This document shows, in pieces, positions 2,983 through 26,527 of a stretch of DNA of 27,462 bases (the first letter of the stretch is position 1; every line of letters starts with the position of its first letter). The stretch is from a virus. The DNA lies in UHGV virus genome UHGV-1840938; one strand, given 5' to 3'. The notes below the pieces were generated by a model. That model was not told where the DNA came from, ran no database searches, and saw nothing but the letters and a program-made list of their open reading frames with translations. Position numbers and translations under genes: made by a program.

Positions 2983-3410
2983 AGCGCCTTTTCAAACTCA
3001 TCAATGTAAAGTCCTGCTTTAATCAGTCGGCGACGGCGTTTGGCCTTTTGCTCGTATTCCTCGCGGCAGTTTTTTGCTGCGTGTTCACGGCTTCTGCGAC
3101 TGAATGGAGGAACGGCATTGCGTGAACGAGGTGTGTCACGACGAGGATTTGATTCGAGGGAGAAAAAGCGATCAACGATTCCGGTGTCTGTGGTGAATGA
3201 CTCTGAAGCCTTGATTTTCACAACCTTACTGCCTTTTGTCAGGCTGCGAGCTACCTTGTTGAACTCGCAAAGTGAAACACCAAATTTCTCTGCTATTTCA
3301 CTGCCAGTAACAGGACGACCACGAGACTGAATCATCCAGGTGACGCGTTCTTTTAACCCACGGAAGACACCGGGCCTTCCAGAACGCCTGTAGAAAGCGA
3401 TCTGTTTCAA
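2979..3410 (-). CDS. Hypothetical basic DNA-binding protein (putative HTH); TTG start
   Basis: 143-aa ORF, GGAGA 8 nt upstream of TTG; HTH-like stretch VTGSEIAEKFGVSLCEFNKVARSL; translationally coupled to the methyltransferase gene. Confidence 0.55.
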   Translation of the reverse strand: MKQIAFYRRSGRPGVFRGLKERVTWMIQSRGRPVTGSEIAEKFGVSLCEFNKVARSLTKGSKVVKIKASESFTTDTGIVDRFFSLESNPRRDTPRSRNAVPPFSRRSREHAAKNCREEYEQKAKRRRRLIKAGLYIDEFEKAL

Positions 3411-3433
3411 ATTTTTGTCTCCAGATATGAAAA

Positions 3434-3452
3434 CCCCGACGGGATGTCGGGG
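3434..3452 (-). terminator. Candidate intrinsic terminator (weak U tract) downstream of the 3466..4173 gene
   Basis: Stem CCCCGAC/GTCGGGG with loop GGGAT; on the minus strand it is followed by TTTTCA. Confidence 0.35.
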
Positions 3453-3465
3453 GTAGTGGGGGAGG

Positions 3466-3755
3466 TCAGAGGCTTAAGGTGAAGCCTTTTCGGGAATTTC
3501 GATCTGACAGTCTTGAAATATCCTGTAGCGTGCGGCGCATTTCTTCCGTCAGATGTTTGAAGGCGTTAAATTCGGCGACAGCGGCGTCAACGTTATAGCC
3601 CTTGCTGTGTAGCTCGTTGAGGATGCGCATAGTTGGGCTTGGCATGTCGAAGAGCACAGAAACGTCCAGGTTAAGAGTTTTTCGATCAACATAGCTCATC
3701 ATGGAGTAGGGGTGATGCTCAGAAAACCACGAGAGAGGGTAGTTGATAGATAGCG
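3466..3755. repeat. Direct repeat copy A (~290 bp; near-identical ~125-bp core at 3533..3660) matching 12827..13116
   Basis: Core differs from 12893..13020 at only a handful of positions by eye; encodes the shared C-terminal domain. Confidence 0.85.
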
Positions 3756-4173
3756 TTGATTCTGGAAGCTGAAGTTGTTCTGGGATTTTTTGACTGAAAT
3801 AGCAGTCTTCCAGTTTTTCGAACACCTCCCACGCCCGATCGGTTTCGAGCATTTTTGCGTGACGGGCTGCGCCGCGTTCTGTCCAGAGAATGAGGGAGCG
3901 AACGTTACGGGCGATTGCCACAGAGTTACTTTGAGTAACCTTGTGACTCACAGAGTGACTTAAAGACACTCTGTGCTTAAACTCACGCAATTCTGCACCT
4001 TCCAGCAAAAAATAATGTTTACCAATAACAAAACGTTCATGGTTTCGGCTGTGGTTTTTGCGAATATTAGTTACTTCTGTGCCGTAAAGCTGCGCAAGAA
4101 GTTCAGTTGTAATAACGGGAATTTGGTTATGGCTGATCTGGGGTACTGTTTCTACGGTGATTTGAGTAGACAT
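3466..4173 (-). CDS. Phage antirepressor-like protein, ORF6N/KilA-N-type N-terminal domain plus a C-terminal domain shared with the Rha-family gene at 12827..13474
   Basis: N-terminus ITTELLAQLYGTEVTNIRKNHSRNHERF... resembles the ORF6N/KilA-N pattern; the C-terminal ~95 aa are near-identical to the 12827 gene; start chosen at ATG 4173 (GGAGAAG upstream) rather than ORF-track 4185. Confidence 0.75.
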   Translation of the reverse strand: MSTQITVETVPQISHNQIPVITTELLAQLYGTEVTNIRKNHSRNHERFVIGKHYFLLEGAELREFKHRVSLSHSVSHKVTQSNSVAIARNVRSLILWTERGAARHAKMLETDRAWEVFEKLEDCYFSQKIPEQLQLPESTLSINYPLSWFSEHHPYSMMSYVDRKTLNLDVSVLFDMPSPTMRILNELHSKGYNVDAAVAEFNAFKHLTEEMRRTLQDISRLSDRNSRKGFTLSL

Positions 4174-4445
4174 AGTCTTCTCCATATGTGTTTTAGTCTA
4201 CGCTCACCAGTTAGTAGCTGGTGATCGGGTGTCAACTAGAGCCACATATGAAGCTCCGGGCATATTCCCCTTGCGGGTGTTGTATTACGCCTCTCCACCC
4301 GACCTTTGTACGGATGTAACTATGCCAGATTGCAGGCATAAAAAAGCCGCAAGGCTATCGGGTGCGGTGACCGCATATGTGTTCTAGTGCGGTCAGTATG
4401 CGATAAGCGCTGCGGCATTGTCAAATCATGGGTATGAAAGATGGG

Positions 4446-4784
4446 TTAGTTTTCTCCTGGCTTCAGGCACTGGTAGAGTTTTGTCACGCTACCATTTAGT
4501 AATTGACCATACATGTTTTGCATCCCTTTAATACGGGTATGAGGGGTTAATTCAAGTGCGCGCTCATATCCCCAGCGAGCGCATACCCTACTGGCAATGC
4601 TGGTTGCTTCGCCCCAATGGGCATAACGACCATCGTCCGTCAAAGGGATGTTCGCTGAATGAACAAACCCCACCTCAACAGTTCCGGCGGATCTATTGGC
4701 ATCCACAACCTCAACAGGTTTACCTTTTGATGATGCGCATCCAGCTAAAATACAAACAGATACAATCAATGCTATATTTTTCAT
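4446..4784 (-). CDS. Putative lipoprotein (signal peptide with LAGC lipobox); likely moron
   Basis: N-terminus MKNIALIVSVCILAGCASS; AT-rich flanks; isolated transcription unit. Confidence 0.7.
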   Translation of the reverse strand: MKNIALIVSVCILAGCASSKGKPVEVVDANRSAGTVEVGFVHSANIPLTDDGRYAHWGEATSIASRVCARWGYERALELTPHTRIKGMQNMYGQLLNGSVTKLYQCLKPGEN

Positions 4785-4849
4785 TTCCTTCCTGTTCTCT
4801 CGTGATATTTATTAACAAAGATGTAAATTTTATATTGCTGAGTTAATAA

Positions 4850-5011
4850 ACATTCACCGTTTTACTGTCAATCATCCATCTGTCAAATCGTGATCTGGCA
4901 GGGAAACGCATCATTATGCTGCATAGCTTCATTAAGAAAACGCAGAAAACACCGCCAGCCGAACGCAAAAAAGCTGAAGCCAGAATGAAGGAGGTTAAGC
5001 ATGACTGGTAA
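4850..5011 (+). pseudogene. N-terminally truncated RelE/ParE (HigB-like) type II toxin remnant
   Basis: Open frame encodes ...GKRIIMLHSFIKKTQKTPPAERKKAEARMKEVKHDW, matching the conserved C-terminal motif of this toxin family; no plausible start yields more than 31 aa; stop overlaps the antitoxin start. Confidence 0.55.
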
Positions 5012-5309
5012 ACGCATTACACCTACCATGACACATGACGAAATGGCAGCCAAATGGATGGAGGATCCGGCTTTCAAAGCAGAATACGACGCCATCGCCG
5101 ACGAGTTCGCACTGCTTGATGAAATGCTGGCAGCACGAAAAGAAGCTGGCTTAACCCAGGCTGAAGTTGCCGAACGTATGGGAACAAAAGCGACTGCGAT
5201 CACCAGAATGGAAAGCAATCTTGCATCAGGTACAAGCGGCCCATCATTTGCCACACTGAAAAAATTCGCCCGTGCTACAGGGAAAAAACTCCAGATCCGC
5301 TTCGTTTAA
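5001..5309 (+). CDS. XRE-family HTH antitoxin (HigA-like antidote protein)
   Basis: 102 aa; GGAGG RBS upstream; HTH segment LTQAEVAERMGTKATAITRME; start overlaps the toxin-remnant stop in classic TA arrangement. Confidence 0.8.
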   Translation: MTGKRITPTMTHDEMAAKWMEDPAFKAEYDAIADEFALLDEMLAARKEAGLTQAEVAERMGTKATAITRMESNLASGTSGPSFATLKKFARATGKKLQIRFV

Positions 5310-5363
5310 CTCTCCACTACCGCGCCGTCATTCTGGCGGCGCTTTACCCCAGAGAAATATCAA

Positions 5364-5609
5364 TCACCGGATTACCACATCCCACTCCGGCTCCTGCCAT
5401 CTCAAATCCGGTGAATCATTTCTCTCAGGAATAACCATTACGTTCCTTTCCATCCGCTCCCTTTCTATCGCCATCACAGCCAATGCTGCAACCATGATGT
5501 ATTTTTGCTCGTCGGTTCCTGTTTCATAGCGCCACATGAGGGTAAACTCGGGGCGATCAGTAACCTCAATGATTTCGTTAATTTCTTTAATTTCGCGAGG
5601 AATATCCAT
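5364..5609 (-). CDS. Hypothetical acidic small protein (uncertain)
   Basis: 81 aa from the ATG in the CCATGG at 5606..5611, which also supplies the plus-strand start of the next gene; no recognisable motifs. Confidence 0.25.
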   Translation of the reverse strand: MDIPREIKEINEIIEVTDRPEFTLMWRYETGTDEQKYIMVAALAVMAIERERMERNVMVIPERNDSPDLRWQEPEWDVVIR

Positions 5610-6282
5610 GGGTTTAGTCTCCTTTGACATTACATGCCCGCACTGTTTAAAAGAGCGAGCTGTTATTGAGGCATTTGCCGAAAAACAAATTGAAAAAACA
5701 CCTCTTTTTAACGTCGCTTTTGTATGCAGAAGTTGTCATCAAGGAGGTGTTGCTATTGTTGAAATCCCATCAGACCACTATCACGGCCCTATGGCGGAAA
5801 GCCAGAAAAAAGACCTTGATATTCTGATTTCAGGAAATAGCCAGTACCGTTTCCGCAAGATCTATCCTGCGGTCAAAAAAATTACCGCACCAGAATCTAC
5901 GCCCCCGGTTGCAGACCGTACTTTTGTTGAGGCAAAAGAGGATTTACAGAGGAGGCGGTACGACACAGTGGTTATTCTTTGTCGCAGAGTCCTCGATATC
6001 TCAACGAAAAAACTGCTCGGCGATGAAGCAGGAAAAGAATCTCTGTCGCAACGTATTCAGATGATTTACAAAAAAGGCCTGATCACTGAACAGATGAAGG
6101 AATGGGCTCATATTGTACGAATAGATGCCAATAAAGCAGTTCATACAGATGAAGTATTCACACCAATTGAGGCAAGCCAGATACTGAGTTTTACCGAAAT
6201 GTTTTTAGTCTACGCCTTCACTCTGCCTGCAATGGTGGAAGCCAGATGTGACCAAAAAAGATCAGATTCAGCCTCTATATGA
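5608..6282 (+). CDS. Zn-ribbon plus DUF4145-like domain protein (candidate defence/abortive-infection protein)
   Basis: N-terminal CPHC...CRSC zinc-ribbon; C-terminal HIVRIDANKAVHTDEVFTPIEASQILSFTEMFLVYAF resembles DUF4145; GAGGA RBS before ATG 5608. Confidence 0.7.
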   Translation: MGLVSFDITCPHCLKERAVIEAFAEKQIEKTPLFNVAFVCRSCHQGGVAIVEIPSDHYHGPMAESQKKDLDILISGNSQYRFRKIYPAVKKITAPESTPPVADRTFVEAKEDLQRRRYDTVVILCRRVLDISTKKLLGDEAGKESLSQRIQMIYKKGLITEQMKEWAHIVRIDANKAVHTDEVFTPIEASQILSFTEMFLVYAFTLPAMVEARCDQKRSDSASI

Positions 6283-6355
6283 ATCTCTTTTCTGAACACG
6301 TAAATACTACTCCGACACACAGTAAGCCTCCCCCCCGTCATTCACGACGGGGATG

Positions 6356-7093
6356 TCATGTTCCAAACTCTGCGTTGTTCTCCGCCTCCAGGATTTCTTC
6401 GATCTTCTGTACTCCCCGATTATTATAGCGAAAGGTTTCTACCTGCTTATCCGAGTGCGGGGATTTGTCGATGAACCATTTCCCGTATTGTTCTGTTTTG
6501 AGCATGTAGGTATTGGCAATGCGACCAACCTTGTTAGCGGATATTTTGAGTTGCACTCCAACTTCTGACGCCGAATAGTAATGTTCATTGATCATCGGTA
6601 GCGGGATTACGTTAGCGCCTACAACGGGATTAACCAGGCTGGCGGCAACGACCTGTTTGGCTTCAGGGGCAAGGTTGGGGAGGAATCCGAAAAGGTCTTT
6701 CATTGTATCGACGGTCATTTTCAGCGCCCGCGCTTTGCGGAATTCCTCAAGGCCGTTAGTCGAATGTTTCGTGGTGGTTTTTTGTTGCAGTTGCTGTTGC
6801 ATTGACTCCAGTTGATCGACCAGCGAACGACGGACGGATTTAGATTCACGAGCGGCAACCCGAAGCGCTTGTTTATAGGTCATCACAATAACAACCTGAT
6901 CCGCACCACCTTTTTTCTTATCCATGGGGGTTACGAAATTTTCGTAACCCTCCCCCTCAAGTTCATCTTTGATGCGTGCAATGAAGTCGTTGTTGCGTAC
7001 TTCTTTTTCACCGCACAGTCTCCGCGCTTCATTCACCATTTTCAACAGAGCCTGGCTGTCGATAGTTCCATTTTTCATTATATTATTTTTCAT
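6356..7093 (-). CDS. Phage antirepressor/regulatory-like protein (KilAC/ORF6C-like C-terminal domain)
   Basis: 245-aa ORF; C-terminal YSASEVGVQLKISANKVGRIANTYMLKTEQYGKW...TFRYNNRGVQKIEEIL resembles antirepressor C-terminal DNA-binding domains. Confidence 0.6.
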   Translation of the reverse strand: MKNNIMKNGTIDSQALLKMVNEARRLCGEKEVRNNDFIARIKDELEGEGYENFVTPMDKKKGGADQVVIVMTYKQALRVAARESKSVRRSLVDQLESMQQQLQQKTTTKHSTNGLEEFRKARALKMTVDTMKDLFGFLPNLAPEAKQVVAASLVNPVVGANVIPLPMINEHYYSASEVGVQLKISANKVGRIANTYMLKTEQYGKWFIDKSPHSDKQVETFRYNNRGVQKIEEILEAENNAEFGT

Positions 7094-23411: not shown

Positions 23412-25373
23412 TTGCAGAATGCATCACTTAACGGAGAGATCGATAACGCACTGGACGCTTATTTTTCGAAAAATGGCGGCGCAGGCGGTAATCGTCCCGA
23501 CGTAAAACTCCTTGTTAAGGACAAATACGGCAAGCAGTATCCCGTTCTCATCGAGTATAAAGGCTACAAGGACAGGCTTATCAGACTTGGCAGCAACGGT
23601 ATTATTGAGAACAAAGATGCCAGAAAAGAATGGAATTTTAAAAATATTAATGGATACGCGGTGAATGGCGCAGTCCATTATGCCAACGCACTTCTTCAGT
23701 TCACCAATTACCCTGATATTATTGCTATTGGTATGACCGGCTGGCGCGATGATGGTACAGGCGAACTGCATCATGAAATCGGCGTGTGGTACGTATCAAA
23801 GAATAATTTAGGAGCCGGACAGAAGGTTGGTGAATTCACCGACTTATCGTTCCTTGCTGACAAAAATGTTGATGGATTTCTCAACAAGATAAAGCTGCTT
23901 AATCTTCCTCCCGAAGAACTGGAAAAAATCAAGGCCAGCAAAGAGGAAGAGATAGACACGCGACTTTCCCGTCTGAATAACGATATTTACCAGAATGAAA
24001 AGGGGCTTGGTGAAAGCGATCGTGTTTACCTTGTTGTGGCTACCGTTATTGCAACGTTGGGGATTCCGGGAAAGTTAGCACCGCTGGATAAAAAAGAACT
24101 GACCTCTTCAACGGAGGAGGACTTGCGTGATGGTGATATTATTTTCAGGAAAATAAGGAATTTTTTAAGGCTGAAAGCTGTTCCTGAAACAAAAAGAGAA
24201 ATGATTTTGCGCTCGTTGCAAAATACGCTGTGGACTGAAAACATTAACAAACCAGTCAACGGTGAAAGCCAGTTAAAGCGCGTGTTTGTTAAAGTTGTTG
24301 ATGATCTTGGGGAGTATTACAAAATTGGACTGACCACCGATTTTACGGGCAAACTGTTTAATGAGATGTATCGCTGGCTTGGATTTACGCAGGACAAGCT
24401 CAATGACGTCGTTCTGACACCACCTTATGTTGCCACATTGCTGGCACGACTCGCCAGAGTAAACAAAGATTCCTATGTGTGGGATTTTGCTACAGGTTCT
24501 GCGGGATTGCTTGTGGCTGCAATGAATGAAATGCTCATTGACGCCAGAGAAAATATTCACTCACCGAACGAACTACAACTTAAGGAAGCGCAAATCAAGG
24601 CTGAACAGCTTCTTGGCCTTGAGGTGTTATCCAGTATTTATATGCTGGCCATCCTGAATATGATTTTGATGGGGGATGGTAGCTCGAATATCCTCAATAA
24701 AGACTCGCTGGCCGATTTTGACGGCAAGTATGGATTTGGGAAAACAGGAGAAAAATTCCCTGCGGACGCATTTATTCTCAATCCTCCGTATTCAGCTAAA
24801 GGTAACGGCATGATTTTCGTGCAGAAGGCGCTGTCGATGATGGATAAAGGCTATGCTGCAGTGATTATCCAGAGTTCAGCTGGCACAGGAAAGGCTACGG
24901 AGTACAACAAAAAAATACTCAAGGAAAATACCTTGCTGGCAAGCATCAAAATGCCTGCGGATCTGTTTATTGGTAAATCAAGCGTTCAGACGTACATTTA
25001 CGTTTTTCAGGTAAAAATTCCGCATAACGCGAAACAGGCTGTTAAGTTTATCGACTTTTCCAATGACGGCTACGCTCGCTCTAATCGCAAAAAGGCAAGA
25101 AACAATCTTGTTGATGCCGATCGTGCAAAAGAGCGTTATCAGGAGGTTGTGGATCTGGTTCACTTCGGGAAAGGTTGCCTTAATATCTTTACGGAGGATG
25201 AATATTTTGAGGGAACAATCGATCCTGATAGTGGTGAGGACTGGAATCAGACCAGGCCAGTAGATGCTAGGCCAACGCTGGAGGATTTCAAAAAGACGGT
25301 AGGTGATTACCTTGCATGGGAGGTCTCGCAATTACTGAAAAAACAAGGTGAAAACAATTTTGCGGGAAAGTAA
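23412..25373 (+). CDS. Restriction-modification subunit: N-terminal PD-ExK-like region plus gamma-class N6-adenine methyltransferase (BcgI-A-like Type IIB/IIG candidate). The open frame extends upstream to 23253 through the repeat tract.
   Basis: Methyltransferase motif I VLTPPYVATLL...VWDFATGSAGLL and motif IV FILNPPYSAKG; N-terminal RPDVKLLVKDKYGKQYPVLIEYK fits a PD...ExK nuclease motif; the only start at the head of the ORF is a TTG with weak RBS, and the first in-frame ATG is far downstream. Confidence 0.85.
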   Translation: MQNASLNGEIDNALDAYFSKNGGAGGNRPDVKLLVKDKYGKQYPVLIEYKGYKDRLIRLGSNGIIENKDARKEWNFKNINGYAVNGAVHYANALLQFTNYPDIIAIGMTGWRDDGTGELHHEIGVWYVSKNNLGAGQKVGEFTDLSFLADKNVDGFLNKIKLLNLPPEELEKIKASKEEEIDTRLSRLNNDIYQNEKGLGESDRVYLVVATVIATLGIPGKLAPLDKKELTSSTEEDLRDGDIIFRKIRNFLRLKAVPETKREMILRSLQNTLWTENINKPVNGESQLKRVFVKVVDDLGEYYKIGLTTDFTGKLFNEMYRWLGFTQDKLNDVVLTPPYVATLLARLARVNKDSYVWDFATGSAGLLVAAMNEMLIDARENIHSPNELQLKEAQIKAEQLLGLEVLSSIYMLAILNMILMGDGSSNILNKDSLADFDGKYGFGKTGEKFPADAFILNPPYSAKGNGMIFVQKALSMMDKGYAAVIIQSSAGTGKATEYNKKILKENTLLASIKMPADLFIGKSSVQTYIYVFQVKIPHNAKQAVKFIDFSNDGYARSNRKKARNNLVDADRAKERYQEVVDLVHFGKGCLNIFTEDEYFEGTIDPDSGEDWNQTRPVDARPTLEDFKKTVGDYLAWEVSQLLKKQGENNFAGK

Positions 25374-25432: not shown

Positions 25433-26527
25433 TTGTTCTATGTGAGCACAGGCTCGCTTATCTCCTCAGGAAGATTAAAACCAGGCAAAATCAAACGTGT
25501 TTCAGCAAAGAGCGATCAAAACGGTATCATCGGAGAGTTTGATACCGAGTTTATGGATGATGCAAGACATTATGAAAATTTTATAAGCGTTAATTTTTTT
25601 GGAGATGCTTTTTATCATCCTTATTGTGCCAGCGTAGAAATGAAGGTGCATGTTCTTACATTAAAATCAAGTAAGTCCGACTTTAATGCAAAGCGCGGAC
25701 TGTATGTTGCCAGTATGATTAATAAAGCTTTAAAGGGGCGTTTTAATTATGGTCAACAGTTATCGAGTTCCAAACTCAGAGATGGAGAATATTTCATCTC
25801 ATTACCAGTGAAAAATAATGAAATTGACTGGTTTTTTATGGATAATTATATAGAAGAGCTGGAAGCGGCCCATATAGAAGAGCTGGAAGCATACCTGATA
25901 GCTGCTGGGCTGAGTGATTACCAACTAACGGAAAAAGATTATCTTATCCTGGAACATTTTAAAAATATTGAATTTTCAGGCTTTCCTGTTACTGAGTTAT
26001 TCTCAGTGTGCAATACAGGAAACATATTGTCTAGAGACATCATAGAAAATAGTGGGGATGTTCCTTATCTTTGTGCTAGCCGTGATAATAACTCTGTTAG
26101 TTCTTATATCGCCTATGATGACTCACTCTTGGAAAAAGGGAACTGTATTTTTATTGGTGGTAAGACATTCGTTGTAACTTATCAGGAGCGAGACTTTTTT
26201 TCAAACGACAGTCATAATTTGCGACTCTATGTTAACAATGAGGATGGAAGGACAAAGTTTGCTTATTTGGGCATTATTTCATGTATTTATAGGTCTATTT
26301 CACATAAATATTCATGGGGGGATAGTGTTAGTAATAGAAAAATTAAGAACGATGTTATTTGGTTGCCAGTGAAAAATAAGTCACCTGACTTTTGTTATAT
26401 AAATGACCTTATTTCAGTTGTTCATAAGCTTGTCATTAAAGATGTTGTCCAGTACGCAGAACGCAAAATGAACGCATACAGGCAAGCTATAACAAGTCGC
26501 GGTTATGATGATTCTGGTGTCAGTTAA
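25433..26527 (+). CDS. Specificity (S) subunit with two target-recognition domains (HsdS/BcgI-B-like)
   Basis: Two repeated TRD-leading motifs (RIGDLFYVSTGSLISSG... and PVTELFSVCNTGNILSR...), central IEELEA repeats; TTG start with AGGA RBS; very AT-rich. Confidence 0.8.
   Translation: MFYVSTGSLISSGRLKPGKIKRVSAKSDQNGIIGEFDTEFMDDARHYENFISVNFFGDAFYHPYCASVEMKVHVLTLKSSKSDFNAKRGLYVASMINKALKGRFNYGQQLSSSKLRDGEYFISLPVKNNEIDWFFMDNYIEELEAAHIEELEAYLIAAGLSDYQLTEKDYLILEHFKNIEFSGFPVTELFSVCNTGNILSRDIIENSGDVPYLCASRDNNSVSSYIAYDDSLLEKGNCIFIGGKTFVVTYQERDFFSNDSHNLRLYVNNEDGRTKFAYLGIISCIYRSISHKYSWGDSVSNRKIKNDVIWLPVKNKSPDFCYINDLISVVHKLVIKDVVQYAERKMNAYRQAITSRGYDDSGVS
25850..25897. repeat. 24-bp tandem duplication in the central spacer region of the S subunit (encodes IEELEAAH / IEELEAYL)
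   Basis: ATAGAAGAGCTGGAAGC appears twice at a 24-bp period (25850 and 25874). Confidence 0.9.

Follow-up and report, generated by a model that had tools for sequence, protein, structure and literature searches.

The window, a stretch of 27,462 nucleotides (UHGV virus genome UHGV-1840938), is a lambdoid prophage that resembles Stx phages, from E. coli or Shigella, with genes of the early left operon (Ea22, exo/bet region) on its minus strand. The locus described here consists of a gene for a 224-aa protein with a predicted N-terminal zinc ribbon and a C-terminal DUF4145 (HEPN) domain, an 81-aa open reading frame (ORF) on the opposite strand, the palindrome CCATGG in which both reading frames begin, and an upstream antitoxin gene with a hairpin 3' of it (Table 1).

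Table 1. Features of the locus and its surroundings; positions are those of the window
Feature	Position	Strand	Details
Integrase gene	291-1535
CI-type repressor gene	16684-17397
Transposed block: toxin 3' remnant, higA-like antitoxin, small ORF, DUF4145 gene	4902..6303		95.2% identity over 1,403 nt to a cassette of E. coli G1/2
HigA-like HTH antitoxin gene	5001..5309	+	Pfam HTH_3 E 4e-11; 298 nt 5' of the 224-aa gene
G+C-rich hairpin, 9-bp stem, then UUUA	5322..5342	+	Left edge of the conserved module, 3' of the antitoxin gene
81-aa ORF (PHROG 8371), coding uncertain	5364..5609	-	ATG 5609 (complement of CAT 5607-5609), stop 5364-5366
Shine-Dalgarno-like GAGGAA for the 224-aa gene	5597..5602	+	7 nt 5' of ATG 5608
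CCATGG with both starts; best read as mosaic breakpoint	5606..5611		ATG 5608-5610 (+), ATG 5609-5607 (-)
Zinc-ribbon + DUF4145/HEPN gene, 224 aa (RAZR-like)	5608..6282	+	Pfam, PHROG 1305, codon-position variation, AF2
Predicted zinc-ribbon domain, residues 1-86	5608..5865	+	Cys codons 5635-5637, 5644-5646, 5725-5727, 5734-5736
Shine-Dalgarno-like AAGGAG for the 81-aa ORF	5619..5624	-	9 nt upstream of the start; inside codons 4-6 of the 224-aa gene
Linker, residues 87-100, PAVKKITAPESTPP	5866..5907	+	Aligns with the RAZR linker
HEPN (DUF4145) domain	5905..6273	+	Catalytic-type motif R171 (6118-6120), N175 (6130-6132), H179 (6142-6144)

The initial annotation had described a 224-aa gene that starts at the ATG at 5608 and encodes a CxxC...CxxC pattern, and on re-reading the sequence all of this holds, with cysteine pairs C10-P-H-C13 and C40-R-S-C43 and a plus-strand stop codon at 6280-6282. 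The methionine encoded at 5608 is the first residue in all 34 aligned homologues, which rules out a 248-aa reading from the ATG at 5536, and the GAGGAA ahead of it is kept in every E. coli-type locus. The C-terminus had been called DUF4145-like. Pfam DUF4145 (HEPN clan CL0291) matches residues 118-197 (E 3.4e-9) with 37.1 bits, exceeding the gathering cut-off of 23.1 bits, and PHROG 1305 matches with E 2.5e-62. Thus, the combination of a Cys4 ribbon with a DUF4145 domain stands, and the outcome that the initial annotation had set against itself, no DUF4145 or defence-related profile match, did not occur. The initial annotation had also linked DUF4145 to restriction and abortive infection. DUF4145 is a divergent family of HEPN RNase domains, with zinc ribbons among the listed fusion partners (PMC3710099), and the nearest characterised relative of the protein is the anti-phage protein RAZR/PD-T7-4 (PMC13017515).

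The AF2 model of the 224-aa protein has a mean pLDDT of 90, with a beta-rich N-terminal domain (strands at residues 4-8, 18-27, 33-40, 46-52 and 81-86) and a helical C-terminal domain. The sole weak stretch of the model, residues 173-177, is the active-site loop. RPB9-type zinc ribbons, a comparator that was also used for RAZR, give a weak match to the family profile (E 0.25). From sequence and model, the Cys4 motif appears to form a zinc ribbon and is predicted to bind metal.

RAZR, the ring-activated zinc-finger RNase of E. coli UMB1727 (PDB 9y9c), is the same protein as PD-T7-4 and acts as a single protein, in which a conserved linker joins an N-terminal Cys4 zinc-ribbon domain to a DUF4145/HEPN domain and both R146 and H154 are essential (Zhang et al., Nature 2026, PMC13017515). 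It is harmless alone and requires no antitoxin; 24 copies assemble around rings of phage portal or Erf-like recombinase, and the assembled protein cuts RNA non-specifically, which aborts the infection. Its specificity is set by the zinc-finger domain, which is also its most variable part (PMC13017515). For our comparisons, the RAZR sequence was rebuilt from two database fragments and its numbering was checked against PMC13017515.

A search of PDB sequences with the 224-aa protein gave RAZR 9y9c as the sole match, a weak one (E 1.1), with RIDANKAVH opposite RIVGNQAVH. BLASTP aligned the two proteins with E 8e-6 over 139 aa. Using hhalign, small profiles gave 91% probability (E 1e-6), and profiles of 202 and 121 sequences gave 98.1% (E 1.2e-13), with residues 85-200 aligned to RAZR 64-178; within this, residues 85-100 fall opposite RAZR 64-79, and the RAZR linker (residues 66-79, PAAGNVELPNPDMP) is matched to the linker of the 224-aa protein by both hhalign and BLASTP. 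The HMMER family profile did not connect the two families (E 0.22 against 9y9c), and hhalign found no alignment between the zinc-ribbon domains, with small or large profiles. The initial annotation had proposed a check with defence predictors; the PADLOC PD-T7-4 model barely detects the 224-aa protein (E 7e-4, 17.1 bits) and does not recognise it along its full length, as the alignment covers model positions 62-158 of 211, or 46% of the model. The same model matches 13 of the 34 family members, at best with E 2.8e-7.

The two proteins are thus alike in being single proteins of about 210-225 aa with an N-terminal Cys4 zinc ribbon that in both has CPHC as its first knuckle, a homologous Pro-rich linker and a C-terminal DUF4145/HEPN domain with the same R-x7-H spacing, and the zinc-ribbon domain is the most variable part of each. 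RAZR needs no partner gene, and the clade of the 224-aa protein has no conserved neighbour across lineages, the 81-aa ORF being dispensable by its distribution. The differences are that the homology amounts to only 24% identity and is confined to the linker and HEPN domain, and that the 224-aa protein has ∼30 extra residues between the second cysteine pair and the linker. In its clade 113-139 residues (median 121) separate that pair from the catalytic Arg, against ∼94 in RAZR. The genomic settings also differ: genes of the RAZR clade lie co-directionally behind an integrase of 538-544 aa in small islands, whereas those of the 224-aa clade lie antisense inside temperate phages. On these comparisons it is very probable that the 224-aa protein has a zinc-ribbon + HEPN build and that its linker and HEPN domain are homologous to those of RAZR. 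Because the zinc ribbons cannot be aligned and the Cys-to-Arg spacing is longer, we treat it as belonging to a sister clade with the same architecture and not as a proven RAZR.

The family is large. With a profile built from the 34 homologues (37-69% identity), 3,323 cluster representatives are found at E<=1e-3, of which 206 reach E<=1e-30. Among the best 150 listed, nearly all have a length of 205-235 aa and match over their whole length, and CxxC...CxxC and Rx3Nx3H are both present in 102 of 128 full-length representatives. Among the 34 homologues, C10, C13, C40, C43, R171, N175 and H179 are invariant, as are the linker prolines P87, P95 and P99. The core of the zinc ribbon (residues 14-86) is the most variable region, with a median identity of 31% and an entropy of 2.18 bits, against 59% and 0.90 bits for the HEPN domain. 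A C-terminal helix motif, FTExFLxYxFTLPxM, is specific to the clade. Close variants of the gene have 3, 4 and 16 variable sites at codon positions 1, 2 and 3 and a pN/pS of 0.37, and from these values it is clear that the gene is under purifying selection.

An identical protein is encoded on 149 E. coli contigs, and phage PhiR12_3 of strain ECOR13 also encodes a protein that is 100% identical. The block from toxin remnant to DUF4145 gene matches a cassette in the nin region of E. coli G1/2 at the identity given in Table 1, with unrelated flanks on either side. In E. coli G1/2 the cassette lies between a ren-like gene and ninB, as does the related cassette of Shigella phage 75/02 Stx, whereas in the window and in PhiR12_3 it is found near the integrase; the cassette therefore moves as a module. 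In the window, the RelE-type toxin gene retains its last 38 codons only, its 5' part having been lost, and the 224-aa gene is intact. The homologue of the antitoxin gene is annotated as a HigA antitoxin in related records.

All five contexts of the family that were inspected closely are Enterobacterales prophages, with insertions in the nin region, beside int/xis, or in the gap between lysis and terminase genes, and in all five the gene is on the strand opposite to its neighbours. Among 63 IMG/VR loci, in a count that used crude ORF calling, 52 have opposite-strand ORFs on both sides, and the flanking coding is overwhelmingly on the other strand. No conserved neighbour gene was seen outside E. 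coli in the contexts inspected. Such an antisense layout is typical of a prophage accessory gene expressed in the lysogen, and we infer lysogen expression here. Family carriers are temperate phages, and they include Stx-converting phages of E. coli and Shigella.

Since the divergent starts leave no intergenic space, the initial annotation had concluded that at most one of the two genes is likely to be expressed from a conventional promoter. This does not follow, for three reasons. In every context the 81-aa ORF points the same way as the phage early operon and so can be read from a distant early promoter; a promoter for the 224-aa gene could be embedded in the opposite-strand ORF; and among other family members, in unrelated contexts, the gap upstream ranges from −14 to about 200 nt and in some is only −14 to 33 nt. 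No sigma-70-like promoter scoring >=9/12 was found within 350 nt upstream of 5608, and a looser scan of the upstream DNA returned only an 8-of-12 match with a 19-nt spacer. DNA upstream of the gene family is not conserved between contexts. The truncation of the toxin gene means that the promoter region of the toxin-antitoxin operon is missing in the window. The hairpin has a minimum free energy of −19.1 kcal/mol (z −4.6), and its sequence is the same behind each of three different toxin-antitoxin modules. No RNA family matched the region 4300-6600 in an Rfam search at E<=1.

In E. coli phages the 224-aa gene always lies on the same strand as a toxin-antitoxin operon (of several types) and ∼300 nt downstream of it, which, with no promoter of its own detected, could make it a co-transcribed third part of a RelE/HigA-type module or a gene that serves the phage as a lytic RNase or in the lysis-lysogeny decision. 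We consider any such role unlikely, as the strong invariant hairpin stands between the operon and the gene, the type of toxin-antitoxin system varies, the RNase gene has outlived the truncated toxin in the window, and outside E. coli there is no toxin-antitoxin neighbour; moreover, its placement antisense to the early and late operons argues against a lytic function. A HEPN-MNT toxin-antitoxin reading was also considered and is ruled out. The toxins of that type (SO_3166 in 5yep; 7ae2/7ae6) are without a zinc ribbon and are neutralised by an adjacent MNT nucleotidyltransferase antitoxin, whereas neither neighbour of the 224-aa gene (the divergent 81-aa ORF, which has no Pfam match, and the upstream HTH antitoxin of the RelE-type module) has an NTase domain.

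The divergent 81-aa ORF is present in the sequence as the initial annotation had it. PHROG 8371 matches it with E 2e-52, and the 81 positions of this profile cover only residues 8-88 of a longer, 88-aa reading, so the start is placed at 5609; the 88-aa reading, from ATG 5630, is ruled out by the extent of this match and by the position of the Shine-Dalgarno sequence. The evidence on its coding status is mixed. In favour are the profile match, two independent 5' contexts that each supply a Shine-Dalgarno sequence and a start codon, the three-helix N-terminal part of its model, and the absence from distant family genes of the CTCCT that yields its Shine-Dalgarno sequence. Against it, full-length relatives in a protein search come from E. 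coli only, with >=87% identity. The variable sites of the ORF (6, 7 and 9 by codon position) have no third-position bias, its pN/pS of 0.56 compares with 0.44-0.86 for the five other frames, and it is broken in two variants, by an in-frame stop in one and a frameshift in another lineage. The model of the small protein has a three-helix N-terminal part (pLDDT about 85), for which Foldseek found nothing below E 1; the sequence has no match in Pfam or NCBIfam, and PADLOC gave a chance-level match only.

The back-to-back starts sharing CCATGG were likewise confirmed, the two start codons overlapping by 2 nt, as they do in each of the 44 loci with both genes. The full palindrome is dispensable: 39 of these loci have CCATGG and five have CCATGA. 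The Shine-Dalgarno sequence of each gene sits within the coding region of the other. Only the E. coli lambdoid lineage has this tight junction; elsewhere in the family unrelated DNA lies upstream, and the CTCCT from which AAGGAG arises is absent from the first 30 nt in all 61 more distant family genes listed. Homology to phages without the DUF4145 gene stops at 5605, directly before CCATGG, and in such loci the small ORF has a different N-terminus (MNNKIN...), a GTG start and its own GAGG. Because homology ends at this point and the N-terminus beyond it differs, the shared start site is a mosaic breakpoint. The back-to-back starts are therefore best read, from the sequence comparison, as the junction of mobile phage modules, and a regulatory device is without demonstrable support. 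At CCATGG, the 224-aa gene would have been joined to a small ORF of the early operon, at the 5' end of that ORF, and the first six codons of the RNase gene would then provide the small ORF with its Shine-Dalgarno sequence and start codon.

It has to be asked whether the 81-aa ORF and the RNase gene could instead be a two-gene system, in which the small protein is an antitoxin, an immunity protein or an anti-RAZR factor and the overlapping 5' ends couple expression. The constant 2-nt overlap, the reciprocal placement of the Shine-Dalgarno sequences, the confinement of CTCCT to the E. coli lineage and the predicted three-helix unit would all suit this arrangement, which we nevertheless regard as very unlikely. 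The small ORF was absent beside every non-E. coli family member inspected and, as it is thus missing from all other family lineages, the RNase cannot require it as a partner. Moreover, 8 of 27 viral loci, as well as ST866-type genomes, have the small ORF but no DUF4145 gene. The site pattern and pN/pS of the ORF, which resemble those of other frames, its two broken variants and the lack of a structural match for its model tell against the arrangement as well, and RAZR, non-toxic alone, needs no antitoxin. That the 224-aa protein is a DNA-binding or regulatory zinc-ribbon protein with a non-catalytic HEPN-like domain, as the description 'DNA binding protein' of PHROG 1305 and the same label in RefSeq NC_029120 would have it, is least credible of all, because these labels are unreferenced annotations, an invariant R-x3-N-x3-H would be unexpected in an inactive domain, and fold and homology are those of HEPN RNases.

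We conclude that the 224-aa gene is probably an anti-phage effector that is carried by a prophage, acts as a single gene and has the zinc-ribbon + HEPN RNase build, with RAZR as a distant sister. That it works as an abortive-infection-type RNase against phages, expressed from the prophage, seems reasonably likely. By analogy with RAZR (PMC13017515), the lysogen would make the protein in an inactive state, the variable zinc-ribbon domain would bind a protein of an infecting phage, and binding and oligomerisation would bring HEPN dimers into an active arrangement; non-specific RNA cleavage would then stop translation and abort the infection. Activation by assembly around ring-shaped phage proteins, as in RAZR, is a more tentative part of this scheme and rather doubtful on the analogy; since the sensor domain differs from that of RAZR, the trigger may differ too. 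A point against a ring sensor is that a phage carrying one builds portal and recombinase rings of its own, so that tolerance would be needed.

The antisense placement of the RNase gene in phage operons might itself act as a switch for self-tolerance, although we think this improbable. The lysogen would make the RNase mRNA only; upon prophage induction, early or late transcription would cross the RNase gene in antisense, giving a transcript that could pair with the RNase mRNA along its whole length, ribosome-binding site included, and the sensor would be silenced before the phage assembles portal and recombinase rings of its own. In the E. coli lineage, the overlap with the 5' end of the early-operon ORF would strengthen the effect, and the 81-aa protein could add a block at the protein level. 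Such a switch, if true, would account for a phage's ability to harbour a sensor of ring-shaped phage proteins and yet not kill itself.

The locus encodes a prophage-borne form of a type of defence protein known from work published in 2022-2026, and it introduces no new principle. RAZR is a small zinc-finger RNase that senses the shape of phage protein rings, and the 224-aa gene represents a second large clade of the same build, whose sensor domain is larger and cannot be aligned with that of RAZR, and which standard defence-finder models barely detect. If active, the clade would be a widespread means by which prophages exclude other phages and a natural comparison for how changes in the sensor domain retarget this class of effector. 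It also leads one to ask how a phage can live with a sensor that recognises structures of its own making.

Three further systems bear comparison with the 224-aa protein. DS-38 (HEP2; WP_001313577.1), an experimentally validated defence protein of E. coli that combines HEPN and zinc-finger domains, from DefensePredictor (Science 2026, PMC13092281; bioRxiv 10.1101/2025.01.08.631726), stands in the same relation to PD-T7-4 as the 224-aa protein does, its HEPN domain aligning and its zinc finger not. However, the DS-38 gene is 1,101 nt long (about 366 aa), a length that rules out identity with the 224-aa protein. The DUF4145 domains of restriction enzymes and helicases (Anantharaman et al. 2013, PMC3710099) belong to the same Pfam family and are predicted defence RNases, but they form the C-terminal module of large restriction-modification and helicase proteins, whereas the 224-aa protein is small and stands alone; a zinc ribbon-DUF4145 fusion is given in that paper only as a table entry. 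HepS of the Salmonella prophage Gifsy-1 (PDB 9oik) is, like the 224-aa protein, a prophage-encoded HEPN protein of similar size and, according to the title of the entry, was solved bound to the J tail tip of phage lambda, a structural protein of another phage.

An allele of the DUF4145 gene encoding a protein 69% identical to the 224-aa protein (P0002) lies at 4001-4675 in the E. coli loci L006/L007, adjoining a HigB-type toxin-antitoxin module different from that of the window. Its first 11 and last ~39 codons are nearly identical to those of the window gene and the middle is divergent throughout, while the small ORF that overlaps its start and the upstream region keep ~91-95% identity. This pattern suggests allele replacement through recombination inside the gene. 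In one further strain, E. coli S1-CAM-02-A, the DUF4145 gene (L004, 3299-3712) is interrupted after about codon 125 by an IS3-family insertion, a natural inactivation.

Upstream of the DUF4145 gene, only the end of a RelE/ParE-family toxin gene is left, with 87% identity to residues 72-109 of the toxin in G1/2, an E. coli strain with a closely similar nin-region cassette. The intact HigA-like antitoxin gene that follows is an orphan, the 5′ part and promoter region of its operon being gone. In place of the missing toxin-gene start there is now other DNA, which holds a 112-aa ORF whose YecR-like match was below threshold (E 8e-4; 20 bits, cut-off 27).

Features of the window and of a related locus lacking the DUF4145 gene (L003)
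Feature	Position	Strand	Remarks
112-aa ORF	window 4446-4784	-	N-terminus lipoprotein-like
RelE/ParE-family toxin gene remnant	window 4895-5011	+	last 38 codons only
HigA-like HTH antitoxin gene, intact	window 5001-5309	+	downstream of toxin remnant
ClpP-like SDH-type serine protease domain protein	window 15344-16255	-	Pfam E 1.7e-11
653-aa protein, N6_Mtase domain	window 23412-25373	+	inside prophage
364-aa protein, Methylase_S (type I restriction-modification specificity) domains	window 25433-26527	+	after N6_Mtase gene
PHROG 25397 gene, 166 aa	within L003 3304-4106	-	phages without DUF4145 gene
96-aa ORF	L003 3437-3727	+	strong GGAGG Shine-Dalgarno; overlaps PHROG 25397 gene

Where the DUF4145 gene is absent, as in L003 (E. 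coli ST866), its slot (3304-4106) is filled by a 300-nt hairpin-bearing spacer and the PHROG 25397 gene; no family match was found for the 96-aa ORF of this locus.

Genes of the sister RAZR clade occur in a different setting: in L123-L128 (E. coli, Klebsiella) they lie in small islands, where each immediately follows a tyrosine integrase gene (538-544 aa) on the same strand. Most RAZR-clade database entries are annotated at 146-168 aa, without the first zinc knuckle, and their start codons may therefore be miscalled.

Elsewhere in the window, the N6_Mtase and Methylase_S genes may form a phage-borne type I-like methylase/specificity pair. The ClpP-like protease gene is possibly another lysogen-expressed accessory gene; it adjoins the CI-type repressor gene (16684-17397, minus strand) within the immunity region, and the corresponding position in lambda is occupied by rexAB.
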